NCBI RefSeq assembly: GCF_055900595.2
Contig: NZ_CM148325.1
DNA: 64,000 bases
Direction: 5' to 3' (one strand)
In this document: in pieces, positions 4,950 through 58,436 of the stretch
How positions within the stretch are numbered: position 1 is the stretch's first letter
Layout of the letters: each line of letters opens with the position of its first letter
Notes under the pieces: generated by a model
Told to the model about the DNA's origin: nothing
Databases searched by the model: none
The model's input: the letters and a program-made list of their open reading frames with translations, nothing else
Position numbers and translations under genes: made by a program

Positions 4950-5201
4950 GAAACTGATTTTCGCTATTAATAATCAGGGTATTTTTGCGTGAGATGTCGG
5001 TAAACATGATGTAGCTCTTGCCACTCATGACCAATCGCAGTATCTTTCTCCCGCGTCTGCAAAATCAGGCGTCGGGATTAGCCTCCTGAAGAAATCTTAT
5101 CGGCGACACATGACGCGCCAGCGTCTTTTTTTGTGTTGTTCGCACGGTTACACCTCAATGGTGGGCCGGGCGGGGGCGTCGCAAGACGCGCCAGTGTCCG
5201 A

Positions 5202-5295
5202 TAAGGCTGGTAAGGCTAACCCTGCCCGGTTCCACCACCCGCGAGATTAGCCTCTCCGGTGGTGGCTTGAACACCCACTTATCGGAGGTTGCCCT
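5202..5295 (+). promoter_or_regulatory. Conserved leader upstream of paralogous gene (second copy 51929-52022) with two mutually exclusive hairpins
   Basis: About 80 percent identity between the two leaders; stems GGCTAA/TTAGCC and CCACCACC/GGTGGTGG; one compensatory A-T to G-C change in copy 2. Confidence 0.35.
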
Positions 5296-6126: not shown

Positions 6127-6145
6127 AATGGTGCGATAATAGGAA
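6127..6145. repeat. att core repeat: partial direct copy of thrW 3' end (matches 26845-26864)
   Basis: AATGGTGCGATAATAGGA vs AATGGTGCCGATAATAGGA at the tRNA 3' end, 18 of 19 identical. Confidence 0.6.
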
Positions 6146-7240: not shown

Positions 7241-7283
7241 GCGTCGTGAACCAATAGTGTACGTTTAGGTGGGTATTTTTCTG

Positions 7284-7718
7284 CTACTGACCAGGATAGA
7301 GCTGATGTGCCGGGTCAAGCCAGACAATATGGAATACATTACCGATGAAAAATCCATGTATGCGACCATATTCATTGCGCGATATGGCAAATTGATAAGG
7401 TGTATAACTCTGAAACTGTTCATTCAAATGCTGAAATCCCTTAGGTTCAGATGTAGTTTGCCAATCAATCGGATGTGACTTCAACGAACCACCGCGATCG
7501 GTGGTGAACTCTCGTTCAGTCATAGTGGAAAGGTCTTTGAGGCGGTCTAACACCTTGCAAAAATAAACAGGATTCTGAGCGCTGAAAGTAAATTTCTCAT
7601 GCGCCGCATCGATATACCGAAAAGAAAAGTTGATGGTCGTTATGCCTGAACCTGTTCCCCCAGGCACTATTTTTGTTTGCGAGGGTGCAATCTTCGACGC
7701 CCTGATTCTTTTCGCCAT
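7284..7718 (-). CDS. Hypothetical 144-aa protein, candidate toxin/effector partner of Panacea-domain protein
   Basis: ORF starts 2 nt after the stop of the upstream Panacea gene; no recognisable motif. Confidence 0.5.
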   Translation of the reverse strand: MAKRIRASKIAPSQTKIVPGGTGSGITTINFSFRYIDAAHEKFTFSAQNPVYFCKVLDRLKDLSTMTEREFTTDRGGSLKSHPIDWQTTSEPKGFQHLNEQFQSYTPYQFAISRNEYGRIHGFFIGNVFHIVWLDPAHQLYPGQ

Positions 7719-7720
7719 AT

Positions 7721-8176
7721 TTAGGAAGCCATCGAACGATAAAACTCAGCCGTTACACTTTTATCAATAACATTCTTGCACGGCGCATCTGATGGAACCC
7801 CTTCACGGGCCTCCAGCCACGGCTTTTCTTGGTGCGTCATCTGCTCCAGCTCATAAGCTGTATAACCGCCAAATACCTCATAGATTTCCTTTAGATGCTT
7901 TGACACATTCGCAGGTAACTCAGGGCAGGCAATCTCTTCGTCTATTGAGCGCCATTTGTAATCTGCAAATCTGGTATACAAATCTCTGGCTACAGGGCCA
8001 TGTACCCATGCTTCAAACTTGTCAGCAACCAGTTCTTCGCCATCATTCAGCGCCATGAACCAAGCATCAGCATAGAACACCATTTTTTGCAGTTTCAGCG
8101 GCGTCATAACATCCCCATGCTCTTGAGCAAAGCAAAGCAGGTAATCCGCTACGCTGTTAAGGGTTGTAACTGCCAT
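7721..8176 (-). CDS. Panacea-domain protein (DUF4065, GepA/SocA-like antitoxin family)
   Basis: MTPLKLQKMVFYADAWFMAL...EAWVHGPV...YELEQMTHQEKPWLEAREG pattern; start moved to internal ATG at 8176 with AGGAG RBS. Confidence 0.75.
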   Translation of the reverse strand: MAVTTLNSVADYLLCFAQEHGDVMTPLKLQKMVFYADAWFMALNDGEELVADKFEAWVHGPVARDLYTRFADYKWRSIDEEIACPELPANVSKHLKEIYEVFGGYTAYELEQMTHQEKPWLEAREGVPSDAPCKNVIDKSVTAEFYRSMAS

Positions 8177-8497
8177 TATCCAATCTCCTGCCGTATGTTT
8201 TCGTCTATAACTGTCCACTACCGTTAATAATCGCATATAACCACGGGTATTGCCCATCGTAAAATGCCATTTAAAGATTCTGCGTGATGGCTCACCATCC
8301 ACCGCGCAAGATACCCGGTGCGTTTGGCTGATAATCCGCAATTTGGTTGAAACCGTCCTGGAAACCTCAAGTTTGGAAACCAGCGACTTGCATCGTAGCT
8401 TTGCCATTCGGCGGTCATAGTTACTGCTATATCCCTTTATTGGCGAGACCTGCGAGAGGTTTTGTTGTTCGAATATATAAAGGTGAATAAAGGTAAT

Positions 8498-8683
8498 CTA
8501 CCTGCGCGGCGCAGGCTTCTTCCACTGGTAGGCGGGTGATCGCATCATTTCGCGAAATTTGTCACGCCGGGCTATATTGGCATTAACTGAGCGTTCTATC
8601 TCCCGTTGATCTGCCGGGGTTAGCTGGTGGCCTTCGTGCTCCAGTTTGGCGGTGGTCAATAAAGCTATTTCGCGTGGTGTCAT
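8498..8683 (-). CDS. Small hypothetical protein
   Basis: 61-aa ORF, charged and helical-looking, no family recognised. Confidence 0.3.
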   Translation of the reverse strand: MTPREIALLTTAKLEHEGHQLTPADQREIERSVNANIARRDKFREMMRSPAYQWKKPAPRR

Positions 8684-8980: not shown

Positions 8981-9262
8981 CTACCTTTGCCTCTTGCCGC
9001 CATTTAACCGGAAGGCGTTACCGTTCGGTTGCGCTATCCCCATGCGGTGTTGCGTTTCGGTAACAGCTTTATGCAGGTCGCCAAATTCCTCAACCTTCAC
9101 GGGCGGGCGCTTCACGTTCTCCAGACACGTTTCACGGCGGCGCTTTATCCATTCCCGATCATCGTCCTCGCTGCATAACAGCATGACTTCCATCCATCGT
9201 GCGGCAGCTCTCCGGTATAGCCCTTTTGACACCAGCTCTTCAGCTTTCCTGTCCCTTATCAT
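8981..9262 (-). CDS. PerC-like small transcriptional activator
   Basis: 93-aa ORF; AEELVSKGLYRRAAARWMEVM resembles the PerC family N-terminus as I recall it. Confidence 0.45.
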   Translation of the reverse strand: MIRDRKAEELVSKGLYRRAAARWMEVMLLCSEDDDREWIKRRRETCLENVKRPPVKVEEFGDLHKAVTETQHRMGIAQPNGNAFRLNGGKRQR

Positions 9263-9298: not shown

Positions 9299-9419
9299 GT
9301 TGGTTCAGTTGGTTCAGTTGGTTCAATTTGTAAAGATCGTTGTTTTTATTATGTTTTTTCTAAAATATTGAACCAACATCAACTCATTTTGAACCAACAC
9401 AGCCCAGCTCTGAACCAAC
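9299..9419. repeat. Iteron cluster A: 3 tandem GTTGGTTCA then 3 spaced TGAACCAAC (crr/ori-like)
   Basis: Exact 9-mers at 9299, 9308, 9317 and inverted copies at 9369, 9390, 9411. Confidence 0.8.
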
Positions 9420-9521
9420 AACACAGCGATAGCTTTGTGATTGGCCCGTTATTTTCTGGCTGATATTTGAGCGTATAACAGTGTTATACAGTGATATACT
9501 GTATGGATATTACTCACTGAT

Positions 9522-9977
9522 ATGGTCTTTGCAATGAGCAAATCTAATCTGGTCGCGTTCCGCATCCCATCTGAATTGCAGGATGAGTTTAATCGGTCTG
9601 TTCTCGCTTCTGGAGGGGATAAAACCTCCTGGCTTGTTGATGCGATTCGCATGAAGCTGGGACAGCCGGAAAAGTCTATTGATTCACGAATGTTTGGGCT
9701 GGTGGAGCGCATGGAAAAAGCTGCTGCGTCGCTTATTGCCGGAAAGCCGAACATCCCACCAAAGCCATATAACGAAACGGCAGTTATAAAGATCATTGCC
9801 GATACCATCCGACAGGGATTTGATAATGGGCGTGTGATAGCTGAACGGATCAATGAAGCAGGCTATCAAACAAAAGCTGGTAAAGCGTGGGATAAAGATA
9901 TTTACAGCGCGTGGAAGCGTCAGGGAAGCAATGCTGAAAAGTTAAAAGCGGTGATTGATTGTAAGGTCAGCGTATAA
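9522..9977 (+). CDS. Putative DNA-binding protein (ribbon-helix-helix-like N-terminus)
   Basis: 151-aa ORF; N-terminal VAFRIPSELQDEFNRS...WLVDAIRMKLG resembles RHH regulators. Confidence 0.5.
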   Translation: MVFAMSKSNLVAFRIPSELQDEFNRSVLASGGDKTSWLVDAIRMKLGQPEKSIDSRMFGLVERMEKAAASLIAGKPNIPPKPYNETAVIKIIADTIRQGFDNGRVIAERINEAGYQTKAGKAWDKDIYSAWKRQGSNAEKLKAVIDCKVSV

Positions 9978-10056
9978 ACATGAGTGCCCATTGGAAAGCT
10001 GCTTGGGCCAATACCTTTATACACCAGCAGGTGGTGACGATAGGTGAGGATCAGGA

Positions 10057-10278
10057 ATGAAAGGCAGAACGCCACACATTGAACATCAAGCCAACCACTT
10101 CTCGGATGTTCGCAATGAGATGATTGCCATTCGCGGTGATATGCACGGCTTGGAGCGTCGAATTATTGATAAGATTGATGAAAATAGAGATAAGGCCAGT
10201 GAAAATCAAAAGTGGATCATCGGCCTGTTGATTTTATCAATTCTTATCCCGCTACTTATCGCATTGGTCACAAAATGA
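10057..10278 (+). CDS. Small membrane protein, XhlA-like (C-terminal transmembrane helix)
   Basis: 73-aa ORF with charged N-terminal region and C-terminal WIIGLLILSILIPLLIALV helix. Confidence 0.4.
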   Translation: MKGRTPHIEHQANHFSDVRNEMIAIRGDMHGLERRIIDKIDENRDKASENQKWIIGLLILSILIPLLIALVTK

Positions 10279-10304
10279 ATATCCAATGTGTATGCTGTCG
10301 ATGC

Positions 10305-10615: not shown

Positions 10616-10822
10616 TGGTGTTTTGCTGTGGCAGTGATATCAGAAAAATCTTCCTGTTTCACATAAAGCGGATATGCGCGTACTGTAACGGCCCCATCAA
10701 CTGGGAGCGGATTTGAGCCCCGAATGTGTAGGCAATGTCACTTAACGTTTGTCGCATACCTTCCAGAAAAAGCGATTCATGAATAATAGGGGCATGAATG
10801 CCCGGCGTACCGGGCTTATTAG

Positions 10823-11521
10823 TTAATTTGGTGCTTTAGGGTCAACATTAAAAGTTATATCACCTTCTGTATTTTTCCCGGCATAGCTAGCGGCTATTCT
10901 CGCCAACCCTTTGTAATCAGCAATTCCATCAGACTGTTGCGAGACGACTGAGCTACCAACTTTCCATAACATATTAATCTGCCGATTATTGAGATAAGCC
11001 TTGGCATCAAACGACTGGAGTATCACCCCTGCGCCGTAGAACGTGTCCGTCACAGTTGTGTTATACGCGCCAGTAATTCCATAAGTAGGCGTATAAACTG
11101 TTGTTGCCGTTCCAGTGGTATTAGCTGTACCGTAGCCACCACCATAACTATTGAACGTGGTGTTCGAGTTTCCGTACGTTGTTGCTGAGCTCACACCAGT
11201 TTGCCCGTATATTGGGATGGTTACATTACGAGTATTTGAAATGGCCCCGCTTCTCAAAAAGTTCAAGAGAATTACCTGGTCAGCCAATTTTTCATCTTTA
11301 ACTTGTGTATATCCTTGGCTTGATAAACTGGCGGCTACTACCGTAGCTATTTGAGTGTATTCAATCTGTTTGGTGTTCCAAAGTTCTTGGCTTGCGGGGA
11401 TGATCAAGAACTTCTTACCGACAGATTGCCCGGAAGATAAAGCATTGACCGTTACTAACGGTTTTTGTACGCATCCAGCCAATAATGACAGGGATAATAT
11501 TAAAAGAAGATTTTTAATCAT
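10823..11521 (-). CDS. Lipoprotein (signal peptide with lipobox LLAGC)
   Basis: MIKNLLLILSLSLLAGCVQ... lipobox; Gly/Thr/Tyr-rich mature region. Confidence 0.7.
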   Translation of the reverse strand: MIKNLLLILSLSLLAGCVQKPLVTVNALSSGQSVGKKFLIIPASQELWNTKQIEYTQIATVVAASLSSQGYTQVKDEKLADQVILLNFLRSGAISNTRNVTIPIYGQTGVSSATTYGNSNTTFNSYGGGYGTANTTGTATTVYTPTYGITGAYNTTVTDTFYGAGVILQSFDAKAYLNNRQINMLWKVGSSVVSQQSDGIADYKGLARIAASYAGKNTEGDITFNVDPKAPN

Positions 11522-11671
11522 GATAATCTCACCTAAGAATTGCGTGGTTATAAATTATCATCACTGTAAGCGAATGTAAGCCACAGACTCGTAATGTGAT
11601 ATGGAATTTTGATAGTTGGCTCAATATCAGTATGCCGTCCTTGGCTATTATGGTTTTGTTAGTTAGAGCGT

Positions 11672-14398
11672 CTATTCCCATTCGCTAACATCTTTCATGC
11701 CACTGAGGGTAGCTACAATCCCGGCCCTTGTCAGTTTCACGAATTCTTCAGCCCCAACGGCATCACGAATTGCTTTCATGGCAATTTTATTGGCCGAAAA
11801 TCGTTTCTCTGCTGCGGCGATCGCTGCTGGTGATGCCCCTGCGCGCACTGCTTTTGTAGCTTCCTGAACGGCTTTCTCTATCGCATATCGACCACTTCTT
11901 GTCGCCCCAATCTTAGCCACAGCATTTCTTAGCGCGCCACCAGCAACCAAACCACTAATCGAACCAATTACACCACCGCCAAAGCCTCCAGCGATCGCAC
12001 CTGACTGTTGAACACCGTTCATAATCACGCCGACGATCTTTGGAAGGCCTGAATCGAGCGTTTTGAGAGCCTCAGTTGTTCTTCCCGTGCGCTCTACGTA
12101 TCGCTGCGGTCTGGTACTGGCTTTAGCGAGTACACCGAACTCTTTCATCATTCTACCGAGATCTGGCGCATGACGACTGATGGCGTTTACATTCTGCTGG
12201 GTCATGAGCTTGGCAAAATACTGGATACCTGACTCTTCACCGATTCCTCCCTTCTCTCCCTGCGCCACAGCATGCTGAAGAATAGATGCTATTGCAGGTT
12301 GGCGTTCTGCTTCCGGCAGCGCGGAGATAAGACGGTGAAAAGCTCCCGTTCCAGTGTTTGCGGATGCCTTAAGCGTATCGGCACCTTTTCTTACCATAGC
12401 GTCTGATGCGAGATCTCGACCAAAAACAGATTCGGCATTTTGTTTGGCGATAATGTAACTTTTAGAGAGATCGTTAGCTTTCTGCCATTCTGTGAGGAAG
12501 TTTCCTTTTTCAGCCATGATGCGCATGTCATCAGTGATAGCTCTGCGCATTTCTCCGGCAATCCGGGCGGCATTGGCCTTACCTGCCCGGGTGTTTGCTT
12601 GTTCAGCATCAGCAAACTTAGCACGCCATGCCTTCATCCCGTCGAAGGTTATGCCGCCACCTTGGTTGTTGGCAGCCTGAAACTGTTTCATCTCCGGGCT
12701 GAGTGGAACATTGGCTGCTTTTTCTGCTTGGACGACAGCCATTCCATTACTCATTTTCATCCTTTCGCGTGGCATCGTGCTTCGCAGTTCTGCCCATGCC
12801 ATATTCTCTGCTGTTTTCATATCACTGAGGCTCGCGATGATGCGCTCTTTAATTGCTGCGCTTTTTTCTGATGCGCTTCCAGACTCAGCACCGAAATCAG
12901 ACAACTGCTTATTCAACTTTGAGGATATTTCATTGAAGGCCGTAAGGTGAGCATCCTGAACATTCCCAGGAGTTGATGCCAGAACACCTTCTGCTTGGGC
13001 AATTCCACGACTACCTGAGCGCATTCCAGGCGTCAGGGTGTTGATATTAATACCAGTGATTTTCGCCGCCTTAGCGACATCATCTCTGACGTTTGATGCC
13101 TGCGATGCGATATGCTCTCGGCCTACGGCAGAACGCGCTGCTTTCGATACATCATTGGCGGTTTCCAGAGTATTTGCTGCCCCTAACACATGGCCTGATT
13201 GATTTGTATTACTCCGCAATACATCTCGCATTACGTCACTGGCTGTCTGTCCGCTCTTTATTAAAGCGCGTGCTCCTAGCGATCCTGCTAGGCCAATACC
13301 TGTCTCTTTTGCTAGGTCTTCTGGGCTGATCTGCCCGTTCTTTTGGGCGTTCACCAATGTACCTGGCAGGTTTTCTGCCAACATACTAGCCACCTTTGTG
13401 GCCGCACGTTCAGCACGTGGAGCGTTGGCAACTGAAGAAGCTGCGGTAGCTGCCTTTCCTGCACCTAATCCTGTAATAAGGTAAGGTGCTAGCTGCTCAC
13501 CAGCCTGCGCGTATGGATCTGTAGGTTGGTCTACTGGGCGAAAGACAGGTGATATGGGCGTGTATGTGCCATCACCCACACCAAGCTTCTGAGCTGCCCA
13601 TGCTCCGGCTGATTGCGCCGCATTGACTACCCCCACGCCTGCGTCCATTACATCAAACGGTATATTAGCAATCCCTCTGGCCATCTGCTCTGGCGCAGCT
13701 TTCAGTCCTGGCGAAAGATATTCCATCTCAGGATTAAGGTTAGACTTGGCTACTTGCTGCTGCGGTTCCCCGGCATTTTCATCGGCGAGAAACTGAGCTC
13801 TTTTCTGCTCCCATGAACTGGCTGTTGGTAGTCCTGCTTCTATGTTCTTAAATTGCTGACGTTTTGCTTCCCATGCAGAAATATCTCCCACCTGAGAGAT
13901 TTCTTTATCAAGCTCTGAGTAGTCAGGCTGCTGAAGATTGCGATGTTGACTGGTTTGTGCAAACTGCAAGATTTCACTGTCATCAGGGATTATTCCGGCA
14001 TCTGCAAATTTACTTACGTAATTAGCCGTTTCATCTGGCAGTGTAGATTTACCGTTTCTGACGGCATTAATACGAGCATAGCCAGAATTATACCCAGCCA
14101 ATGCCATACCTATATCACCAAATCGCTTCATTCCTTTATTGAGATGGTTTGCTGCGATATCCATTTGCTTTTCAAATGGCAGTGAGCGCGGATCTGTTCC
14201 ACGATAACCAGCATCACTCATTACTGAGGGCATCAGTTGAGCAAATCCTCTAGCTCCTTTCGGTGACTCGGCACTTCCGTTACCACTAGATTCATTGCCA
14301 ACTAATGTTTCCATCGTCCCTGATGGGAAACCATATTTTTCATCGAGATGACGGGAATAGGCTTTCTGTTTTTCTGTCAGTTGTGCCATCATTGCCAT
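11672..14398 (-). CDS. Phage internal virion/ejection protein with N-terminal lytic transglycosylase (SLT) domain
   Basis: 908 aa; SLT motifs ES(catalytic)...GARGFAQLMP...AGYNSGYAR near the N-terminus. Confidence 0.8.
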   Translation of the reverse strand: MAMMAQLTEKQKAYSRHLDEKYGFPSGTMETLVGNESSGNGSAESPKGARGFAQLMPSVMSDAGYRGTDPRSLPFEKQMDIAANHLNKGMKRFGDIGMALAGYNSGYARINAVRNGKSTLPDETANYVSKFADAGIIPDDSEILQFAQTSQHRNLQQPDYSELDKEISQVGDISAWEAKRQQFKNIEAGLPTASSWEQKRAQFLADENAGEPQQQVAKSNLNPEMEYLSPGLKAAPEQMARGIANIPFDVMDAGVGVVNAAQSAGAWAAQKLGVGDGTYTPISPVFRPVDQPTDPYAQAGEQLAPYLITGLGAGKAATAASSVANAPRAERAATKVASMLAENLPGTLVNAQKNGQISPEDLAKETGIGLAGSLGARALIKSGQTASDVMRDVLRSNTNQSGHVLGAANTLETANDVSKAARSAVGREHIASQASNVRDDVAKAAKITGININTLTPGMRSGSRGIAQAEGVLASTPGNVQDAHLTAFNEISSKLNKQLSDFGAESGSASEKSAAIKERIIASLSDMKTAENMAWAELRSTMPRERMKMSNGMAVVQAEKAANVPLSPEMKQFQAANNQGGGITFDGMKAWRAKFADAEQANTRAGKANAARIAGEMRRAITDDMRIMAEKGNFLTEWQKANDLSKSYIIAKQNAESVFGRDLASDAMVRKGADTLKASANTGTGAFHRLISALPEAERQPAIASILQHAVAQGEKGGIGEESGIQYFAKLMTQQNVNAISRHAPDLGRMMKEFGVLAKASTRPQRYVERTGRTTEALKTLDSGLPKIVGVIMNGVQQSGAIAGGFGGGVIGSISGLVAGGALRNAVAKIGATRSGRYAIEKAVQEATKAVRAGASPAAIAAAEKRFSANKIAMKAIRDAVGAEEFVKLTRAGIVATLSGMKDVSEWE

Positions 14399-15708
14399 CC
14401 CTTAAGTTTTGCCTGATAGTAACTTTCCGGCAGATAGCCATGTGCGGTCACATAATCCTTAACCAGTGAAGGATCCTGCAACAGCATTTTGGTATCAGTT
14501 TCTTCGTCCTTAGATTTGGTTACAGGAATACCGAGCCCGGCAATCTGTCGTTTCTGCATTCGAATAATTACGTCCTGCGCTTTATTCAACTCTCGCAAAA
14601 ATGCCTCATTGCTGGTTGCTGACTTAATGCCATTTTGAGATTGCATAAGGGCAGCCCTTTCCCCTTCGGTTGGGTTAGAGCCAAAAGTCCCTTTGAGGCT
14701 AGGCAGAATAACCTTTAGGTTGTATTCATCAGCTTTGGCGCGTAGGCTTCGTGTGTCTTCTGCTACATCAGGAAGGAATCCAAACCCCAGCGTCAGGGGG
14801 TTATAGTTCTGCGAGCGGGTAACGGCCGAAGGATGTTTCCCTACAATTCCCGCCAGTTCATGACCCACTTCAAGCGCAGAGTTCAAGGAGTCGATGTTAC
14901 CTGCAACAGTATTAATTTTATCGTTCATCTTCTCCACTTTCGCCTGCTGTATCTTGCTCAGTTCAGCATTGAGCTTGTCTCTCTCGATGTCATTTTGAGC
15001 ACGTCCAAGTCGTGCTTTCAGAACCATTTCTCTCGTGCGTAGTTGGTTATCGGATAGGACTTTGAACTGCTCCATATCGAGACGTCGATTACCCTGTTCC
15101 GCATTAACCTGAGCATTATATGCGGATGTATCTGCGTTCTGCTGTGCAATGCTCTGCCCTTGCTGCTTCTCTTGAACACTAAAGTAACTATTTGGATCAG
15201 CATGGAGGTGGATGAGGTCAGTGATTCTGTTGAATTCCTGTGGGTCATTCTGCCAAGACTGATAAACCTCTTCAGCAGGAAGACCAAATCGCTGTAATAC
15301 TGGATTTGCCTGCTGAATGGCCTTCTGCATGGTCAGTGGATCTCCAGTTTGTGACGCAAGACGCAGATTCATGGCAGCGTCAGCGGTCTGTCGATTTTGC
15401 TCAGCATCAATGAATCCCATCTGTTTTTGAGAATCAGCCATAAACTGGGGATACTGGGCCATTAACTTCTGCACGCCAACACGATCATTATTAGCTACCG
15501 CACTACCCAACCGTGCCTGATATTCTTTTAACTGCTGGGAAATTTGCGCCTGCTGATTAATCTCAGCAACGCCTCTTAGCCCCTGTAGCGCCATTAAACC
15601 TACGTTTGGCTGCTGCTGATACTGCACAGGCTGAGGAACGGAAGAACGAGGAGCATTATCATTTTGCGGTGCCATGCTAGGCAGCCCGCCAAGTTGCCAT
15701 GTCGCCAT
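14389..15708 (-). CDS. Phage internal virion/ejection protein (Gln-rich, coiled-coil)
   Basis: 439-aa ORF with start/stop overlap to neighbours in the same operon. Confidence 0.6.
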   Translation of the reverse strand: MATWQLGGLPSMAPQNDNAPRSSVPQPVQYQQQPNVGLMALQGLRGVAEINQQAQISQQLKEYQARLGSAVANNDRVGVQKLMAQYPQFMADSQKQMGFIDAEQNRQTADAAMNLRLASQTGDPLTMQKAIQQANPVLQRFGLPAEEVYQSWQNDPQEFNRITDLIHLHADPNSYFSVQEKQQGQSIAQQNADTSAYNAQVNAEQGNRRLDMEQFKVLSDNQLRTREMVLKARLGRAQNDIERDKLNAELSKIQQAKVEKMNDKINTVAGNIDSLNSALEVGHELAGIVGKHPSAVTRSQNYNPLTLGFGFLPDVAEDTRSLRAKADEYNLKVILPSLKGTFGSNPTEGERAALMQSQNGIKSATSNEAFLRELNKAQDVIIRMQKRQIAGLGIPVTKSKDEETDTKMLLQDPSLVKDYVTAHGYLPESYYQAKLKGWQ

Positions 15709-16385
15709 TAGAATCCAAGCCCCCCAACAAGACCAATAAGCCCACCACCAATAGCGCCGGCCGCAGTTCCTATTCCAGGAACAACGGAACCAAGTTGCGC
15801 ACCCGCTAAAGCGCCTGATGCTGCCCCACCAATACCACGCGCAAGACTGGATGGCTGCTGCGCCTGACCTGCACGAATAGCGCCAAGCCCCTGCAAGAGT
15901 TGTCCGGTATTATTGGCGTAGTTTTGCCCTGCCGTTGCCTGCCCTGATGCCGCATTCATCCCGACATTTAGCAGGTTTCCATAATTTTGCATTTGCCCAC
16001 TGAGCCAATTGTTATAAAGCATGGGCGCAATGGAAGATAACTGGTTACTGGTAGCTGTTGAGCCAAGCCCCCCGGTAGCTTCTGCTGAGACAAGGTTCTG
16101 ATAACGGGCCTGATCTGCCTGTGTTTTATATAAACCAGAACCAAAGAAATCATTCGCGGCTTTATTCTGCCCTTCCAGAGTCATCAGTCCTTGTAGTTGT
16201 TGTAAAGCAGGCAATCCGACTTCTGCATACGGCTTGAGATTATTCATCACCGTATTCCACTGCTCGCGCTGCAAATCAATTGCCTGCTGCTGGGCCTTCG
16301 CCTGAGCTTTAGAGGCACCACCATCACCGCCTTTTTCGTATACGGCACGATTGAGATGTTTATGAGCTATGTGGGTAATTAACAT
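15708..16385 (-). CDS. Phage internal virion/ejection protein with Gly-rich hydrophobic C-terminus
   Basis: 225-aa ORF, overlaps neighbours by 1 and 7 nt. Confidence 0.6.
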   Translation of the reverse strand: MLITHIAHKHLNRAVYEKGGDGGASKAQAKAQQQAIDLQREQWNTVMNNLKPYAEVGLPALQQLQGLMTLEGQNKAANDFFGSGLYKTQADQARYQNLVSAEATGGLGSTATSNQLSSIAPMLYNNWLSGQMQNYGNLLNVGMNAASGQATAGQNYANNTGQLLQGLGAIRAGQAQQPSSLARGIGGAASGALAGAQLGSVVPGIGTAAGAIGGGLIGLVGGLGF

Positions 16386-16840
16386 TCGCTGAATTCCTTA
16401 TATTGTTGCCGAGTTAACTGATAAAGCGTTACGCCGACGGGTTTACCACATCTGATATAAGCATCATCAAGGTGACCAACACGGGTAGCGCCAAGCAAAC
16501 GGATAATTGCCCGTCCGTATTTGGTGGTGTCAGGAACCATGGTAATGCTGTTAAGGAATGGTGAGTTTTCGAGAAGCCATTTGCAGAATAATCGATGCCC
16601 TTGCAGTGCATATTCACCACGGAATCCGGGGTCGTACACCGCATGGCATTCAACAACGCTATGCCAGAAGTTACGCACTTCATGAACGCCAGCCAGCACT
16701 AATCCTTCGTAGATGCCGAGATATACCGCATCAGGCTTGATGTAGTACGTGTGCCCCGGCTCAACAATATTTTCGGTATTGCCTGGCTCGTTAAGAAAGG
16801 CCTGTAATCGCACAGGGTTATCAATAAATTTTAGTTCCAT
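16379..16840 (-). CDS. Hypothetical phage protein, first gene of ejection-protein operon
   Basis: 153-aa ORF. Confidence 0.55.
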   Translation of the reverse strand: MELKFIDNPVRLQAFLNEPGNTENIVEPGHTYYIKPDAVYLGIYEGLVLAGVHEVRNFWHSVVECHAVYDPGFRGEYALQGHRLFCKWLLENSPFLNSITMVPDTTKYGRAIIRLLGATRVGHLDDAYIRCGKPVGVTLYQLTRQQYKEFSEC

Positions 16841-16856
16841 GCGATGCCATCCATTT

Positions 16857-17018
16857 TCACATACAGCCTGCCAGCGCCTTATCTATTAACCCTCGTGCAA
16901 TTTCATGCAGAGTTGGCGCTACTCCAATTCCTGATTTTTTACGCTGCTCTTCCTGAATTTTCTTTATCGCTTCCATTTGCTTCTCACTTATCAATACCGG
17001 CTTTACTGAAATAGCCAT
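16857..17018 (-). CDS. Small hypothetical protein (53 aa)
   Basis: Hand-translated ORF below the track length cutoff, AT-rich promoter upstream. Confidence 0.3.
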   Translation of the reverse strand: MAISVKPVLISEKQMEAIKKIQEEQRKKSGIGVAPTLHEIARGLIDKALAGCM

Positions 17019-17466
17019 AACGCCCCCTTAGAACTGTATAAAACAACAGTTATTATAGTTTCACAAATCGCAATATTCATCATCGTAATTGCAAAATATG
17101 AAACAAATAGCACAAAAAAATGCCACCGCTCAGTAGCTGGTGGCATCGTTCTGTGTGTCAGGTTTTGACAGGTTTTTTATGGACTCTAAAAACTATATTT
17201 ATGGTGTCGCATTACTCTTCACGGCAGGCGCTTTTCAGTTCTGCCCTTGCTTCTGGCTCCATTGGTAATTTGATTCGCGATCAGCTATGCGGATGGTTTG
17301 CTGAACAGGCATAACAACTTCTCAGAGGCTGTTTTTTGAACTACGAAAATTTCGTAGTGCTCACTTTCAAAAACGTCACGCCCTTGTACACAGGATTTTA
17401 CGAAAGTCTCGTAAAACACTCTCTGATGCCAGCCAGGTGTTGTGCGCATCAATTCAGTCACATTGT

Positions 17467-17577
17467 GTTGGTTCAAAATACCGTGTTGTTGGTTCAGTGT
17501 TGGTTCAATAAAAAGAATAAAATCCTTATAAAACAATACTCTTTACAAATTGAACCAACTGAACCAACTGAACCAAC
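17467..17577. repeat. Iteron cluster B: 3 spaced GTTGGTTCA then 3 tandem TGAACCAAC; inverted image of cluster A
   Basis: Reverse complement shares a 45-nt near-identical block with 9295-9340; lies just downstream of the primase gene. Confidence 0.8.
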
Positions 17578-17602: not shown

Positions 17603-20362
17603 TCATTCTTCAGATGAGTTATAATCTCCTGGCTGGTAATTGAGTACATAAACGTTTATTTGTCGTCCCTGAATACGTGGTGATTTTCTTTGGTATCCAC
17701 GACCGCTGTTTGGTGGGGTTAGCATCCCGGCTTTTTTCAACACTTCAGCAAACTGTTTTGCGTTGAAACCACATGCGATCTCCTTTTCAAATGTGGCCGG
17801 GAATGTGTAGAAAATCATTGGGCTTTCGTCATGTTCTCCACGCTGACGGTATCCGGCTAAATCTTTGATGGGCAAATCTGCCGGGCTGTATGGAAATGGT
17901 GCAAAACGGCTAAGCCCATAGGCATTAAGAAATGCCTCCGTTTGTTCAATAATCTGCTGATGTTCTTTGTTACCTGTGCCGAACTCGCGCAACCATGCGT
18001 TATAGCTGTGCTGTATCGCATCACGGCATGTCTGAGCATCCCAGCCTGTTACAACCTCGCCTAACAGCAATGCGGCCTCCAGAATGGCAAATCGCGCGGC
18101 TACACGGTGAACCTGCTCACCATAATCGGATGGGATCAGGCTTCTCCATCTGCTTTCGCAATCACGAACGGTTTTAATAGCCTGTTGCTGGTGGTCTGCC
18201 AGCCATTTAATCCACTCACGCCCGGACGCGCCGTGGTGATGCTGGTAAGCGTCTTTCAGTGCGTCTGCGTGCTGTTTTCCGTTCTGGTAATCGTGAAAGC
18301 GTACTGCTTTACTCAACGGAATATTCAGCAGTCGCACCAGTTGCCCGGCTTTGGTTTTTCGCCCGGAAGTAGCGATAAATGTTTCTAAATCCATTTCTCC
18401 GGTGCTGATTGCCACTGTACGCCAACGTTTTAGATCCCGGTTTCCACCATCTTTAGCGCCTTGCAGTTTCCCTACACCGTTAAATAACGCATAGGCAGAC
18501 TGTGAAACGCTGACAGGATCAGCGCCCTGACCAACTTCATCAAGCGGCATTAGTCCGTCATTGTGGGCGGCGGCCTCATTTGCCAGCCCCAGCGCGGTTC
18601 CGTACCACGTCAGCCGCAGTAAATCAGGGTTGCCGTATAAGCTGCTCGCCACGTTTGCCGTGGTGGTCTTACCTGCGCTCGACTGCTCATAGAAATGAAT
18701 GCCGAACCCGTCAGCGCCCACCAGCCCAATCAATGGCGCTGCCAGTGCTGCGCCGATCCCGGTCATCATTGAATAGTTACCAAAGGCCAGACGCGCCACG
18801 TTATCACGCCAGCTTTTCGCGCTCCCTGAGACGGTATATCCGGCTGCGGCTGAGCTTCTCCCGCTGAACAGCACAGGATTTTCAGGTGTTCCGATGATTT
18901 CCCCATCAGGCATGATGTACGCTCCGCATTGCCAGCCAGTGGCATGAGCAACACGCCACAATTCACGAGAGCCACTGCGTTGTAGCCAGTCTGCCAGTAT
19001 TGCTCTGAGGCTGCTTTTGGTCGTGACATTTACCCCACCAGCTTTAAGTGTGCGCCATCCTTCACGTTCACCAATATCAGCCAGTGGAATGGCAGCGGTT
19101 GTCGGCGTTTCAGAACCAAACGACAGCCAGCGAAGAATGAGATACTGGTCTTTATCGTCTCTGCCAGTACCGATAACGCTTAACGGAGAACATAACCAGC
19201 TTTCGTTATTGATGATTTCTCCACTCTGGCTGTCAGCTCTCGGAGATACCCAATAAATACCATCCTCGCGGCTTTCTATTCTTGGTTTCAGTGGGTCGGT
19301 ATCCATAACCTTAAAATCGCTTCCCTCAATGGTCTGTGGCTCCTGTTTCACGCCATTACCCTGTGGTTGGTACATTGACTTATTGAACGCTTCTGTGGCG
19401 CATTTAATGCCGTGTTTTTGGTGGTAATCATTCCAGTCTGCTTTGTGATCTGTCGGGGGTAATGCCACCCATCCAGAAACAGATAAAGCTGCTTTTTCTG
19501 CTGCTATTCTCCCCGTGTTTTGTCTTCCTTCGCTGTGGTCGTTATCCGCAGCAATGATGATTTGTGCTGAAGGATATTTATCCCGCAGTACCTGGGCGAC
19601 ATATAACAGGTTCCCGGCATCAATCGCCGCCACTGTCAGCGCCTCTGGACGAATTAAATGGGCAGATAATGCCGTTGCCAGCCCTTCTGCGATTAAGATG
19701 CTCTGTGTTGTTTCTGGTGCGTTTATGGCGTGATATGCCCCCCGCTTTGCTGAACCTGTCAGGAGTCTTTTTTCACCATGTGAGGTAATAGTCTGTGCTG
19801 CTGTGACTGCGCCGGATTTATCCACCAGCGCCAGCAACAGAGATCCATCGGGCAACACGGGGAATGTAAAATCACCTACCCCTTTCGCAACCAGATAATC
19901 AGATTTGCCGTTTACAGCCTTTCTGCGCATGTCATCAAACTGACGGGAAAACGTATCCCGTCTTTGTTGTTCGTCCTTCTCTGCCCTTTTCAGGCGCTCC
20001 TGTTCGCGTCGCTGGCGCTCGGTTTCCAGTTGTTCCCGTTTCTGGCTGGTGGCTTCTGGTGTTTCCGTTGTCCGGTAATCAATACCCAGAACATCAGCGG
20101 CAAGAAGCGCCGCCTCTGTTGTGTCGCAGTTATTTACGCGTTTAATTAAATCCAGCCCATCACCAGCGCCGCACTGATTACAGATGAAGCTACCGCGCCC
20201 GTTGTCATCGAACCGGAATCGATCTTTGCCCCCACATGCAGGGCAGGGAGCATGACGGCGCGGAGAGTCAGGGACATTTATGTTCAGGCAGCCCAGCACA
20301 TGAGGCCAGTTGTTTTCAGACGCACTGATAACCTGACGGATAAGATCAATGTTTCGCATCAC
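17603..20362 (-). CDS. P4 alpha-like DNA primase-helicase
   Basis: 919 aa; zinc-finger CPACGG...CNQCG, TOPRIM-like acidic core IIIAADNDH, Walker A SSAGKTT. Confidence 0.85.
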   Translation of the reverse strand: MMRNIDLIRQVISASENNWPHVLGCLNINVPDSPRRHAPCPACGGKDRFRFDDNGRGSFICNQCGAGDGLDLIKRVNNCDTTEAALLAADVLGIDYRTTETPEATSQKREQLETERQRREQERLKRAEKDEQQRRDTFSRQFDDMRRKAVNGKSDYLVAKGVGDFTFPVLPDGSLLLALVDKSGAVTAAQTITSHGEKRLLTGSAKRGAYHAINAPETTQSILIAEGLATALSAHLIRPEALTVAAIDAGNLLYVAQVLRDKYPSAQIIIAADNDHSEGRQNTGRIAAEKAALSVSGWVALPPTDHKADWNDYHQKHGIKCATEAFNKSMYQPQGNGVKQEPQTIEGSDFKVMDTDPLKPRIESREDGIYWVSPRADSQSGEIINNESWLCSPLSVIGTGRDDKDQYLILRWLSFGSETPTTAAIPLADIGEREGWRTLKAGGVNVTTKSSLRAILADWLQRSGSRELWRVAHATGWQCGAYIMPDGEIIGTPENPVLFSGRSSAAAGYTVSGSAKSWRDNVARLAFGNYSMMTGIGAALAAPLIGLVGADGFGIHFYEQSSAGKTTTANVASSLYGNPDLLRLTWYGTALGLANEAAAHNDGLMPLDEVGQGADPVSVSQSAYALFNGVGKLQGAKDGGNRDLKRWRTVAISTGEMDLETFIATSGRKTKAGQLVRLLNIPLSKAVRFHDYQNGKQHADALKDAYQHHHGASGREWIKWLADHQQQAIKTVRDCESRWRSLIPSDYGEQVHRVAARFAILEAALLLGEVVTGWDAQTCRDAIQHSYNAWLREFGTGNKEHQQIIEQTEAFLNAYGLSRFAPFPYSPADLPIKDLAGYRQRGEHDESPMIFYTFPATFEKEIACGFNAKQFAEVLKKAGMLTPPNSGRGYQRKSPRIQGRQINVYVLNYQPGDYNSSEE

Positions 20363-22138: not shown

Positions 22139-22386
22139 TTTTCACCACCAAGAATTACCAGCTCTGCACGAGCATCGTTAACCAAAGATGAGCACGCTTT
22201 AATCGCATCCACGACATCAGCAGCGTCCATTTCTTCAGCCGAAAGACTGACAGCAACCAGGACAGCCGCTGCTTGCTCGATTAATTGAAGTGCGGACGTA
22301 AGTCGAGGGGCATTAATTGAGTTATTCATTGGTTGCCCCCGTTTTTCCTGGCATTTCGCCACCTTCCAGCAGGAAATGAACGTCAC
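22135..22386 (-). CDS. Hypothetical protein
   Basis: 83-aa ORF; true start may be internal. Confidence 0.35.
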   Translation of the reverse strand: MTFISCWKVAKCQEKRGQPMNNSINAPRLTSALQLIEQAAAVLVAVSLSAEEMDAADVVDAIKACSSLVNDARAELVILGGEK

Positions 22387-22540
22387 GAACGGCGAGATCC
22401 AATATCGCGAGTAACGCCTTCAGTCTTTCGTCTCGTGAGGGAGAGTTGCTCACCAGAATGTCGTTAATCACTTCTGTCAGTGTGATGATCTGGCTTGTGC
22501 GTTCGAGGGGATCCATATGCACATCGTAGGTTTTAATCAT
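22322..22540 (-). CDS. Hypothetical small protein
   Basis: C-terminal 72 aa of the long 355-aa track ORF; GGAGGTG RBS before ATG at 22540. Confidence 0.35.
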   Translation of the reverse strand: MIKTYDVHMDPLERTSQIITLTEVINDILVSNSPSRDERLKALLAILDLAVRDVHFLLEGGEMPGKTGATNE

Positions 22541-22874
22541 GTGCCACCTCCATGCGGATACGACCAGCAAAAAAGCAGACGTGATCGCGCACCAGAGAAC
22601 GGCGAGCATCGCGTTCAGACTCGGCAGCAATATGATGAATTTTGGCGGTAATTGTCGGGCAATCGCGGCGAACTGCGGCGATAATCCAGATAAATTGCGG
22701 TTTTTGGGTAGGGGTAGTAGCCAGCATGTGGCAGCCTCCTTGTACTGGGAATTCTTCCCACCACCGGAGCTGCGAAACTCGCTGGTGGTGGACTGAACAG
22801 AGTTCGCAGTACCGGCGTACAAGGAAACCGGCCAGCCTTTCGGCTGCCCTGTCCAGCCCACCATAATTTTGCAA
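22533..22874 (-). CDS. Hypothetical protein
   Basis: 113-aa ORF with ATG/TGA overlap at 22533-22540. Confidence 0.35.
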   Translation of the reverse strand: MQNYGGLDRAAERLAGFLVRRYCELCSVHHQRVSQLRWWEEFPVQGGCHMLATTPTQKPQFIWIIAAVRRDCPTITAKIHHIAAESERDARRSLVRDHVCFFAGRIRMEVAHD

Positions 22875-23385
22875 GCGACGCGGATTATAACCACATCACT
22901 GAAAAAAGTGTGAGTCTGGCTAACGGCACAAAAAAAGACGCTCGGCGCGTCATGTGTCGCCTCGTACATTTCCGGGCTGCGAAACCCGGCACCCGTTTTA
23001 TGAGGTGCCTTATAACCATAAACCGTGTTGCCGCATAACGGCAAGCTCTTTTTTATGGACTCCGAAAACTCACTATTGGAAGAACCAGAAGCACAGTACA
23101 TCGCGCTCATTTCGTTAACGTCACGCGCGTGGACGAATGTTTTTGTGGAGTCACTACACGAGCGGAAGACATCATCTACGACCAGAAATTTTCTGGCGCA
23201 GCCGCTGACCTTCTCAAGGCTAATATCATCGCCCGAGATTTCTGGTATGGTTAAGGCATCCGTTCCGGCCACCAGCAAATGATAAACTTTGCTTGTATCT
23301 GCTGTATTAATGCCTGACTTTGCCGTCATATTTCTGGATTTTGGCGACATACCAGCCAGTGAAAATGTCTTCTTCTGGATGGGTA

Positions 23386-23565
23386 TCATTGGTTAACCTC
23401 CGCGAACTCCTTCATGAAACGCGCCAGCGGTTGTACGCATGGCGATTGATACCCGTCGCGATAAAACGTCACTCGGTTGTGAGACACGCTTTCGACAGTA
23501 ACGAGTGCTCCGTGGGCATCTTTGTAGCGTTTTTGAGGTTGTGGTGTTCCTGTCGGCTTAAACAT
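23386..23565 (-). CDS. Small hypothetical protein
   Basis: 59-aa ORF from internal ATG overlapping antirepressor stop. Confidence 0.35.
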   Translation of the reverse strand: MFKPTGTPQPQKRYKDAHGALVTVESVSHNRVTFYRDGYQSPCVQPLARFMKEFAEVNQ

Positions 23566-26846: not shown

Positions 26847-26922
26847 TGGTGCCGATAATAGGAGTCGAACCTACGACCTTCGCATTACGAATGCGCTGCT
26901 CTACCAACTGAGCTATATCGGC
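26847..26922 (-). tRNA. thrW: tRNA-Thr (anticodon CGU)
   Basis: Reverse complement GCCGATATAGCTCAGTTGGTAGAGCAGCGCATTCGTAATGCG...TATCGGCACCA; anticodon loop TTCGTAA. Confidence 0.9.
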
Positions 26923-27036: not shown

Positions 27037-28290
27037 TTATGCACGAATGGTGTAATCACCAATGCCGATCCACTTGTAGGTGGTCAGAGCTTCCAGCCCC
27101 ATTGGGCCGCGCGCGTGGAGTTTTTGTGTGCTTACCGCAACTTCCGCCCCCAGACCAAACTGGCCGCCGTCGGTAAAACGCGTAGAGGCGTTAACGTAAA
27201 CAGCGGAGGAATCCACTTCGTTAACAAAACGCTGGGCGTTGCGCATATCGCGGGTCAGGATCGCATCGGAATGTTGCGTGCCGTGTTCACGAATATGGGC
27301 GATGGCATCGTCAAGATCGCTGACGATTTTAACGTTCAAGTCTAATGACAGGAACTCATCGTCATACTCTTCGGCTTTAACAGCCACCACCTTCGCTGGG
27401 CCTGCCTGCAACTGCGCCAGCGCAGTTGCGTCAGCGTGTAATGTCACGCCGCTTTCCGCCATTTGCTTGCTTAATGCGGGCAGGAAGCTATCTGCGATGT
27501 TTTTATTTACCAGCAACGTTTCTACCGTATTACACGTGCTCGGGCGCTGAGTTTTCGCGTTGACAATCACTTTCAATGCTTCAGCGATCTCTGCACTTTC
27601 ATCAACGTAAATATGGCATACGCCTATACCACCTGTGATTACCGGAATCGTCGACTGCTCGCGGCACAGTTTATGCAACCCAGCCCCGCCGCGTGGGATC
27701 AGCATGTCGATGTATTTATCCATACGCAGCATTTCACTGACCAGCGCACGGTCAGGATTATCAATCGCCTGCACGGCACCCGCCGGTAAGCCACAGGATT
27801 TCAGGGCGTCCTGAATCACCGCCACCGTTGCCGCGTTAGTGCGACACGTTTCTTTGCCGCCGCGCAGGATCACCGCGTTACCTGTTTTCAGGCACAGCGA
27901 AGCAACATCTACCGTCACGTTCGGGCGCGCTTCATAAATCACGCCAATCACCCCCAGCGGCACGCGACGGCGTTCCAGACGCAGGCCGCTGTCCAGCACC
28001 CCGCCATCAATTACCTGCCCCACTGGATCGGCGAGGTTACACACCTGGCGCACATCATCGGCAATGCTTTTCAGCCGTGCGGGCGTCAGTGCCAGGCGGT
28101 CAAGCATCGCTTCGCTAAGGCCATTGGCACGCGCGTCAGCAACATCCTGGGCGTTAGCATTGAGGATGCTTTCGCTTTGTGCTTCCAGTTCATCGGCGAT
28201 TTTTTCCAGCACGCGATTTTTTTCGCGGCTGGAGAGTTGCGCTAATTTATACGAGGCTTGCTTCGCGGCAATGCCCATTTGTTCCAGCAT
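27037..28290 (-). CDS. proA: Gamma-glutamyl phosphate reductase
   Basis: 417-aa translation matches ProA. Confidence 0.95.
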
Positions 28291-28301
28291 CGGCCTGCTC
28301 C

Positions 28302-29405
28302 TTAACGGGTAATCATATCATCACGGTGAACGGCAACCGGGCCGTATTCATATCCCAGTATTGCATCAATTTCTTGCGAGTGGTGTCCGGCAATACGGCG
28401 TAATGCATCGCTGTTGTAACGACTAACGCCGTGGGCGATATCGCGACCTTCGAGGTTGCAAATGCGGATGACTTCACCACGCGAGAAATTGCCAGTCACG
28501 CTTTTAATGCCTTTCGGCAACAGGGAGCTGCCGCGTTCAAGAATGGCGGCGGTTGCCCCTTCATCTACCGTGATTTCACCCGCAGGCGGCGCACCGAAAA
28601 TCCAACGTTTGCGGTTTTCAAGCGGAGTCGCCTGGGCATGGAACAGCGTACCGACGGAAATACCTTCCATCACATCACCAATGACACCCGGCTTACTGCC
28701 CGCGGCAATAATGGTGTCGATACCCGCACGGCAAGCCACGTCCGCGGCCTGCAATTTAGTGCTCATGCCGCCGGTTCCAAGACCTGAAACGCTGTCACCA
28801 GCAATCGCGCGCAGAGCGTCATCAATGCCGTACACATCTTTAATCAGTTCTGCCTGCGGATTGCTACGCGGATCAGCGGTATACAAACCTTTTTGATCGG
28901 TCAGCAACAACAGTTTATCGGCACCCGCCAGAATCGCCGCCAGCGCCGAAAGGTTATCGTTATCGCCGACTTTAATCTCTGCAGTAGCGACAGCATCGTT
29001 CTCATTGATTACCGGAACGATGTTGTTATCGAGCAGCGCACGCAAGGTGTCGCGGGCGTTCAGGAAGCGTTCACGGTCTTCCATATCAGCACGAGTTAGC
29101 AGCATCTGCCCGACGTGAATGCCATAAATCGAAAACAGCTGTTCCCACAGTTGAATCAGTCGACTCTGCCCTACCGCCGCCAGAAGTTGTTTCGAGGCAA
29201 TAGTCGCTGGCAGTTCCGGGTAACCCAGGTGCTCACGTCCGGCGGCAATCGCCCCCGACGTCACAATTACAATCCGATGCCCGGCGGCATGTAGCTGCGC
29301 GCACTGGCGAACAAGTTCAACGATATGGGCACGGTTCAGGCGGCGCGATCCGCCTGTTAGCACACTGGTGCCGAGTTTTACCACCAGCGTCTGGCTGTCA
29401 CTCAT
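28302..29405 (-). CDS. proB: Glutamate 5-kinase
   Basis: Start moved to [16 protein letters not shown] (367 aa). Confidence 0.95.
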
Positions 29406-57942: not shown

Positions 57943-57972
57943 CTGTTCGTCCTTCCCGCTGAACTGGCTGGG

Positions 57973-58404: not shown

Positions 58405-58436
58405 TGTTATTTTTCCCTGAAAATTAATGAAATGGA

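Follow-up and report, generated by a model that had tools for sequence, protein, structure and literature searches.

A complete P22-type DNA-ejection cassette in an EcCIMP1-like phage satellite of Escherichia coli

Why would a mobile element that has no genes for a head, a tail or packaging keep the genes for DNA entry into the next cell? The question is raised by a 64,000-nt stretch of E. coli DNA from contig NZ_CM148325.1 of RefSeq assembly GCF_055900595.2 (the window hereafter; coordinates count from its first base). Its minus strand holds six open reading frames (ORFs) between 17018 and 10823, for proteins of 53, 153, 225, 439 and 908 aa and a lipoprotein, with neighbours abutting or overlapping by a few bases in operon-like fashion; all six lie where a preliminary description, made from the sequence without database searches, had placed them. 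We identify this region as the late operon of a phage satellite, integrated and closely related to EcCIMP1, and show that it contains a complete P22-type ejection set in canonical order, gp14-gp7-gp20-SLT-gp16 (SLT, lytic transglycosylase domain). These are the satellite's only virion-related genes.

The satellite spans 6135–26863 (20,729 bp) and is inserted in a tRNA-Thr gene. Direct repeats of the attachment (att) core TCCTATTATC bracket it at the tRNA gene, the mark of site-specific insertion; the window has exactly two exact copies of this core, where 0.05 would be expected. Window 10298–29183 matches the EcCIMP1 locus of E. coli MP1 at 98.5% identity, flanking proA/proB included. EcCIMP1 is a phage-inducible chromosomal island (PICI; Pick, Stadel & Raivio 2025, PMC11773190; GenBank OR778291), classed by its authors as a PICI under AlpA control. 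Unless Kapi1, a temperate P22-like podovirus, is present and induced, it neither excises nor circularises, and its excision requires its own int and alpA (PMC11773190). Read along the minus strand from the tRNA, the order in the window is int, AlpA, a 143-aa protein, an Ant/Bro-like protein, the Ash/isrK/C4 region, small ORFs, primase, origin, terminator, ejection operon and an accessory end (Table 1), with the integrase, AlpA-type regulator, primase/replicase and adjacent origin of an EcCIMP1-type PICI all present. The locus is a further copy of the published satellite and is PICI-like in its induction and replication. Because the element has already been published, what is new is not the locus but the interpretation of its cassette, together with the pattern across the family described below. 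Neither the reading as a full ejection-protein set nor the same-slot DNA-delivery pattern appears in the literature searched, and we found there no paper describing a satellite with ejection proteins.

The preliminary description had called the element P4-like and had seen in it no capsid, portal, terminase or tail genes and no sid, delta or psu. The P4 likeness stands for the C4 and isrK RNAs and the Ash region, which are P4/P1-like. It fails for the primase, which is of the TOPRIM plus DUF927 kind, for the missing sid, psu and delta, and for the class, which is that of AlpA-regulated PICIs. The absences extend over the whole att-bounded element: PHROG scans of the ORFs examined and the RefSeq annotation of identical copies gave no capsid, portal, terminase, tail/tail-fibre or lysis gene, and the PHROG scans of satellite ORFs gave no match to the P4 sid, psu, delta and epsilon families and no terS, rpp or cpm-like gene.

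What the operon encodes is identified by membership of its products in the gp7, gp20 and gp16 families and by the 14-7-20-16 order within one transcription unit. A suspected likeness to P22 gp7/gp20/gp16 was borne out by profile matches to phrog_651, phrog_598, phrog_917/2534 and phrog_770, in P22 order; all four proteins belong to phage ejection families, and the 908-aa protein aligns to the gp16 family over residues 189–864. PF16928 is recorded for a 99%-identical cluster representative of the gp20 homologue, and PF01464 plus PF26808 for orthologues of the SLT-gp16 protein. The lytic transglycosylase domain foreseen at the N-terminus of the latter is Pfam PF01464, at residues 17–119 (E 3.8e-12), with the motifs GNES (ES), GFAQLM (GLMQ-like) and AGYNSG (AYNxG-like) readable in the protein, which RefSeq annotates as 906 aa in identical copies. 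Glycine-rich, hydrophobic segments are found at the C-terminus of the gp7 homologue (residues 198–225) and at 800–828 in the C-terminal part of the gp16 homologue. NCBIfam added nothing for the cassette proteins, and a sequence search of the four against all PDB chains returned nothing at E <= 0.01. The T7 gp13–16 core, offered in the preliminary description as another model, is an analogy only. Matches to T7-type families are confined to the SLT region (phrog_342 and phrog_669, residues 9–217), and we rejected a T7-core reading of the cassette, as there is no T7-type homology beyond the transglycosylase domain.

The first operon gene, for the 53-aa protein, had no PHROG, Pfam or NCBIfam match. 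Its AlphaFold2 (AF2) model predicts an extended N-terminus followed by two helices. A ribbon-helix-helix fold, suggested by eye, was discarded: Pfam gave nothing, hhalign against Arc and CopG gave nothing, and Foldseek on the good AF2 model gave no hit below E 7.

P22 has its needle gene (26) followed by 14, 7, 20 and 16 in that order; sieA comes immediately next, encoded on the other strand. The satellite's gp14-like protein is 23% identical to P22 gp14 and 84% identical to Kapi1_055. Identities to P22 and Kapi1 are 56% and 58% for the gp7-like protein and 28% and 26% for the gp20-like protein; for the gp16-like protein they are 46% over 76 residues and 25%. The nearest phage gp16 proteins are of HK620 type (47–51% identity). 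One of these, that of phage Dewey, aligns from residue 21 and therefore also bears an SLT domain. In a search of 50,697 phage records, the top gp20 match shows 28.5% identity. A genuine P22-like prophage with gp20 of this lineage is first met in Klebsiella electrica (45% identical); it has genes for terminase, portal, scaffold, coat, gp4, gp10, needle and tailspike. The sole DNA-level similarity to Kapi1 is a stretch of 590 bp over gp14 and the start of gp7 (window 15900–16840 against Kapi1 27948–28536), at 82% with a 400-bp core at 91%. Its confinement to the gp14 end suggests, from the sequence comparison, recombination with helpers, or constraint, at that end only.

The cassette is kept by purifying selection inside satellites and is no remnant. 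Comparison of the window with satellites of other genera gave dN/dS of 0.04–0.09 for all six genes, with dS > 1. The unit of 53-aa gene, gp14, gp7, gp20, SLT-gp16 and lipoprotein stands behind a satellite primase in Enterobacteriaceae contigs (the lipoprotein being named for Kluyvera, Pluralibacter and multi-species Enterobacteriaceae); one Enterobacteriaceae copy stands behind a D5_N/DUF5906 primase, so that two primase types are found with it. Satellites of Pectobacterium and Serratia marcescens keep the cassette as well, with gp20 69–73% identical; the lipoprotein was not seen in these cassette loci. E. coli also has this cassette in a satellite with a different integrase, inserted at another att site, yicC/dinD.

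Other E. coli satellites have the same backbone with other ejection genes. Type B satellites carry gp14, gp7, another gp20 (473 aa) and a 701-aa gp16 without the SLT domain, and type C satellites carry gp20 (488 aa) and gp16 only. Across 5,426 complete E. coli genomes, the segment with the 53-aa gene and origin was present in 328 (∼6%), the type A cassette in 66–71 and the type B gp20/gp16 pair in 301. The mosaic alleles of the type B and C satellites match a published rule, by which gp16 and gp20 are co-adapted and must match while gp7 is interchangeable, mismatched gp16/gp20 pairs giving non-infectious particles (PMC10461980). The mosaic of cassette types in E. coli has the look of an arms race.

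The ejection operon has its own conserved promoter. An inverted repeat, TTGCAAT-N13-ATTGCGA, at 17068–17094 precedes a −10 element, TATAAT, at 17052–17057, and directly after the latter is a predicted LexA site with the exact box pattern CTGT-N8-ACAG (17034–17049). The 100 bp upstream of the 53-aa gene are conserved family-wide whatever the cargo, with inverted repeat, −10 TATAAT and CTGTAT...ACAG. Of 32 family loci, 11 have an exact LexA box ahead of the 53-aa gene, compared with 0.5% of control windows, and this strong enrichment suggests SOS control of the ejection operon. SaPI operon I is LexA-controlled (PMC5052747).

We surveyed the family with the primase as query, taking one genome per species, which yielded 54 enterobacterial loci. 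A homologue of the 53-aa gene was downstream of the primase in 26 of these; about half of the 54 have no 53-aa gene and carry other modules. Directly after the 53-aa homologue, a P22-type cassette was found in an Escherichia sp. and, in divergent form, in Lelliottia (loci L016 and L058). In Klebsiella michiganensis, Chimaeribacter, Pantoea, Erwinia and Leclercia the place is taken by genes for a 108-aa protein and a tape-measure protein of 857–1188 aa (phrog_1538/1107/3519, E down to 0). Still other loci have there a single protein of 584–863 aa, of tape-measure-like, ‘lytic tail’ or ‘tail injection transglycosylase’ type, and a Rosenbergiella locus has a baseplate hub (phrog_196). No other virion genes accompany the alternative cargo at L018, L022, L024, L026–L030, L033, L034, L037, L039, L041, L048–L050, L068 and L080. 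The Chimaeribacter element is complete, running from int through AlpA, pRha, DUF4222, Ash, primase, PerC, the 53-aa homologue and the 108-aa protein to a 1136-aa tape-measure protein (PF20155, PF06120), and then to host ligB/gmk; it has no virion gene besides that for the tape-measure protein, which has 66–69% DNA identity to those of temperate siphoviruses such as ES18. Every one of these cargo types is a part of the virion that either passes through the envelope or forms the lining of the DNA channel. Tail-assembly inhibition by the Tai systems of PICIs was also considered, and these systems have no relation to ejection genes or tape-measure genes.

In SatelliteFinder, tail profiles disqualify an element as a PICI, so it would reject the relatives with tape-measure genes, and tools with a rule of this kind would probably overlook the satellites with alternative cargo. 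A 2025 preprint describes tape-measure proteins as otherwise absent from satellites. It is possible, at less than an even chance, that EcCIMP1-like elements form a satellite class that the papers searched do not recognise. Its hallmark would be a cargo drawn from the genome-delivery conduit of the hijacked virion (P22-type ejection proteins, siphovirus tape-measure proteins, injection transglycosylases or a baseplate hub), swapped by helper type behind the 53-aa gene and a shared, often LexA-boxed promoter, and paired in the E. coli types examined with a SieA-like or TraT-like exclusion gene. Such elements would re-arm stolen particles with entry proteins of their own and cross injection blocks that stop the helper, while carrying a block themselves.

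The gene after gene 16 bears on that last part. The satellite's lipoprotein occupies the slot that P22 uses for sieA. A β-hairpin with strands of ∼40 residues is predicted for it, as is a fold like that of PelC, TraT and DUF4136, outer-membrane lipoproteins that form rings; Pfam scores are weak (TraT E 0.13, DUF4136 E 0.11). In a P22-like prophage of Serratia a homologue comes immediately after gene 16, and in a lambdoid prophage of Rouxiella one is found within the tail cluster; both are typical moron positions. Gene context and the modelled fold together make plausible the exclusion factor that the preliminary description had suggested. PADLOC assigned no defence family to the lipoprotein or to other satellite accessory proteins. 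In the type B satellite of E. coli EC0430 (locus L004), the gene that directly follows gp16 (8002–8616, plus strand) has the opposite orientation, and its product, a multi-pass membrane protein, is a homologue of P22 SieA (phrog_7745, E 4e-4; BLASTP 29% over 108 residues, E 8e-8), with a C-terminal RYPGEA common to both. The type B satellite therefore carries the whole P22 block, 14-7-20-16-sieA.

What such genes can do is known from P22. Particles without gp7, gp20 or gp16 fail to inject, though they are filled with DNA, and whole ejection sets of very divergent P22-like phages assemble into P22 virions and function there (PMC10461980). SieA blocks injection; escape from it has been traced to gp16 and gp20, and the HK620 set withstands it in part (PMC10461980). 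Satellite gp16 is of this HK620 type (48% identity).

The preliminary description had left two alternatives, a satellite supplying its own ejection proteins or a prophage remnant. The former fits the near-identity to mobile EcCIMP1, the presence of the cassette in several genera and the low dN/dS. Because the element has no capsid, tail or packaging genes and its ejection set is complete and conserved, it probably rides in a helper particle and supplies its own entry machinery. We accordingly favour, at a probability of roughly 60%, the explanation that the satellite would load hijacked helper particles with its own ejection proteins, freeing its DNA entry from the helper's ejection-protein type.

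The steps would be as follows. DNA damage would induce a P22-like helper prophage, for which Kapi1 is the demonstrated example, and the helper would turn on satellite AlpA. The satellite would excise and replicate from its own primase and iteron origin. Its ejection operon would be transcribed from its own promoter while the helper builds procapsids, a timing proposed because of the LexA-box pattern in that promoter. Satellite ejection proteins would then enter helper procapsids; published P22 hybrids tolerate divergent sets if gp20 and gp16 are matched. The helper terminase would fill the heads with satellite DNA, two genomes (a dimer) per headful. Twice the satellite length is 41,458 bp (39,926 bp for EcCIMP1), close to the Kapi1 genome of 39,436 bp, and a headful of two genomes would explain why no capsid-resizing gene is needed. 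In the next cell, satellite gp7, gp20 and gp16 would form a trans-envelope conduit, with the SLT domain cutting peptidoglycan. The likely benefit would be entry into cells that block helper-type ejection proteins (e.g. by SieA-like exclusion), helper lysogens among them, so that injection blocks would perhaps be bypassed. In the resident state the lipoprotein would probably serve as an envelope-level exclusion factor.

Several points weigh against this explanation. Kapi1 transduces EcCIMP1 at low frequency, ∼5e3 per ml, and a Kapi1-like prophage is present in just 2 of 21 EcCIMP1 strains (PMC11773190); given the poor transduction, Kapi1 may not be the natural helper. No helper pac site or small terminase was found in the satellite, the DNA similarity search against Kapi1 giving the gp14/gp7 stretch only. 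The presence of satellite ejection proteins in particles, and their effect on transfer, are predictions from the genes, and the idea of dimer packaging comes from lengths and nothing else. Since DNA is packaged only once the ejection proteins are in the procapsid, the satellite cannot reserve its proteins for its own particles, and mixing with helper proteins could be harmful, mismatched gp16/gp20 pairs being non-functional. Finally, the LexA box is exact in only the 11 of 32 family promoters mentioned above.

The cassette has also to be weighed as a weapon. EcCIMP1 adds to superinfection immunity against Kapi1, and PADLOC and DefenseFinder revealed no known defence system in it (PMC11773190), nor did PADLOC here. 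Satellite ejection proteins and the adjacent envelope protein might provide that immunity by acting against phages instead of serving satellite entry: mismatched gp16/gp20 pairs might poison the conduit of the helper or of an incoming phage, or conduit assembly might be jammed in the resident cell. Satellite gp20 and gp16 are just 25–26% identical to those of Kapi1, mismatched pairs yield non-infectious particles, and an exclusion-type gene always adjoins the cassette. We nevertheless consider interference unlikely: EcCIMP1 does not reduce Kapi1 titres on induction and leaves infection of non-lysogens unaffected (PMC11773190), poisoning would strike the satellite's own particles equally, and a decoy would need less than four genes that strong purifying selection maintains from end to end. 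A rather smaller chance goes to the cassette as insurance, allowing the use of helper prophages whose ejection genes are defective or unsuited to the envelope of the local host, and so widening helper range rather than evading exclusion. A precedent is the second AlpA-like gene of EcCIMP1, which can replace Kapi1 xis and which its authors read as insurance against decayed helpers (PMC11773190); the rarity of Kapi1 among EcCIMP1 strains and the retention by type C satellites of the gp20/gp16 pair alone also agree with it. The ejection genes of helpers, however, are in the middle of the late operon and give no sign of preferential loss, and the pairing with exclusion genes would be left unexplained.

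The authors of the EcCIMP1 study saw in EcCIMP1_017–019 a resemblance to ‘DNA transfer’ proteins and to DUF2824, and suggested that these act in packaging (PMC11773190), by which helper packaging or capsid assembly would be redirected. The cassette does lie downstream of the primase, where PICIs keep packaging genes, and DUF2824/phrog_651 is labelled ‘head morphogenesis’. Such a role is improbable in view of the homology to ejection proteins, since P22 mutants in 7, 16 and 20 still form DNA-filled particles that merely do not inject (PMC10461980); nor were terS, rpp or cpm-like genes among the PHROG matches, and the tape-measure proteins and baseplate hub that relatives have in the same slot have no packaging role. 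There is very little to be said for a remnant, here a decayed P22-like prophage fused to an integrative element, with the ejection genes as functionless leftovers. The P22 gene order and the gp14/gp7 stretch of nucleotide similarity to Kapi1 would suit it. It is contradicted by the precise att borders, by the intact int, alpA, primase and origin, by the same architecture in several genera and at two att sites, by the dN/dS values and by the mobility of the near-identical EcCIMP1.

If the satellite does load helper particles with its own ejection proteins, it adds to the known satellite strategies, which are capsid theft, resizing, terminase redirection and own heads. A lineage that keeps only DNA-entry proteins points to another pressure point, the crossing of the next cell's envelope, where SieA-type exclusion acts. 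The existing MP1/Kapi1/EcCIMP1 system allows a direct test of the idea.

Table 1. Features of the satellite and its ejection operon (window coordinates)
Feature	Position	Strand	Evidence and remarks
Distal att core repeat TCCTATTATC	6135..6144	.	One satellite end; core identical to that sequenced for EcCIMP1
Hairpins on both strands, operon end	10790..10815	.	Terminator-like, poor T-tracts
Outer-membrane-type lipoprotein, 232 aa	10823..11521	-	Lipobox LSLLAGC; DUF4136/PelC/TraT-like domain; candidate exclusion factor
SLT domain fused to P22 gp16 homologue, 908 aa	11672..14398	-	phrog_770 ‘DNA transfer protein’, E 5e-121, residues 189-864
P22 gp20 homologue, 439 aa	14389..15708	-	phrog_917/2534 ‘released from the phage upon host infection’, E 4e-44
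P22 gp7 homologue, 225 aa	15708..16385	-	phrog_598 ‘DNA ejection’, E 3e-70; PF25688 recorded for orthologues
P22 gp14 homologue (DUF2824), 153 aa	16379..16840	-	phrog_651, E 1e-66
53-aa protein (‘p53’), first operon gene, satellite-family marker	16857..17018	-	Homologues behind primase in relatives
Conserved operon promoter	17034..17094	-	Inverted repeat, -10 and LexA-box pattern
Intrinsic terminator-like hairpin with T-run	17122..17137	-	Between replication unit and ejection operon
Putative replication origin	17467..17577	.	Three TGAACCAAC iterons 9 nt apart and three inverted GTTGGTTCA copies, AT-rich spacer between
Primase/replicase, 919 aa (zinc ribbon, TOPRIM, DUF927)	17603..20362	-	phrog_1139, E 6e-179; Pfam families recorded for orthologues
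Ash-family ORF region	22322..23389	-	RefSeq name ‘ash family protein’; contains isrK and C4 antisense RNA
C4 antisense RNA	22781..22868		Within Ash-family ORF; Rfam RF01695, 81 bits
isrK RNA	22931..23008		Within Ash-family ORF; Rfam RF01394, 69 bits
Ant/Bro-type antirepressor-like protein, 277 aa	23558..24391	-	phrog_5817, E 1e-37
AlpA-type helix-turn-helix regulator/excisionase, 67 aa	24835..25038	-	phrog_66/2790
Tyrosine integrase, 404 aa	25467..26681	-	phrog_1, E 1e-77
tRNA-Thr(CGT), integration target	26847..26922	-	Second att core copy TCCTATTATC inside, 26854-26863

The accessory end of the satellite has two further features. Two genes at 7284–8407 (minus strand) that EcCIMP1 lacks may form a toxin-antitoxin or defence pair: one product (228 aa) has a SocA/Panacea antitoxin-like domain, and the other (144 aa) belongs to the MAG6450 family. 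The small PerC/ANR-like regulator at 8981–9262 (minus strand) is the orthologue of an EcCIMP1 gene reported to silence LEE expression.

Outside the satellite, just past the distal att, a plus-strand gene (1950–4949) in a region of low GC content encodes a 999-aa defence-type reverse transcriptase-nitrilase fusion that matches DRT RT_UG5-nitrilase (PADLOC E 8e-288). Between this gene and the att is a second pair of isrK and C4 antisense RNAs (5053–5242, plus strand), which looks like the remnant of a related P4/PICI-like element with the DRT gene as cargo; in MP1 a truncated integrase occupies the equivalent place. A GC-rich, strongly skewed stretch at 53520–60656 (minus strand) is unrelated to the satellite; it consists of an ordinary vgrG gene of type VI secretion and, next to it downstream, a gene for a PAAR/Rhs toxin.

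Among known systems, P22 shares with the satellite the ejection families and their gene order, the hydrophobic C-terminal segments in gp7 and gp16, and the moron slot directly after gene 16. It differs in that the satellite has no coat, portal, terminase, needle or tailspike genes and that its gp14, gp20 and gp16 are just 23–46% identical; P22 gp16 also lacks the N-terminal SLT domain of satellite gp16, a fusion that some true P22-like prophages have. T7 gp14, gp15 and gp16 have an analogous role (outer-membrane pore, periplasmic tunnel and inner-membrane part), with an SLT domain likewise N-terminal in the largest protein, whereas the satellite's matches include no T7-type family except for that domain. 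To the TraT and PelC/DUF4136 lipoproteins, the satellite lipoprotein has only marginal sequence similarity.

Classical Gram-negative PICIs (EcCICFT073 type) and SaPIs have in common with the satellite an integrase, AlpA control, a primase with neighbouring origin and helper-induced excision, and SaPI operon I, also a late operon, likewise follows the replication module and has a LexA-type box. They differ in that the satellite has no terS, rpp, ppi or cpm and that its late operon codes for DNA-delivery proteins. P4-like satellites share the tRNA-linked integrase, AlpA-type regulator, Ash region with C4 and isrK RNAs and large primase, and some relatives of the window satellite have a P4-alpha-type D5_N/DUF5906 primase; here, by contrast, sid, psu, delta and epsilon are absent and the helper is a P22-like podovirus rather than a P2-like myovirus. 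The mycobacterial EPIPs and the PLE11 proposal are also satellites with a single tail or DNA-conduit gene, called unusual by their authors. Their backbones and hosts are unrelated, the EPIPs code in addition for capsid, scaffold and terS, and an ejection-protein cassette is not reported for them. EcCIMP1 differs in its accessory end, window 7243–8495 and 9400–10297 having no counterpart in MP1, and has the same tRNA-Thr/proA site, att core, backbone and cassette layout.

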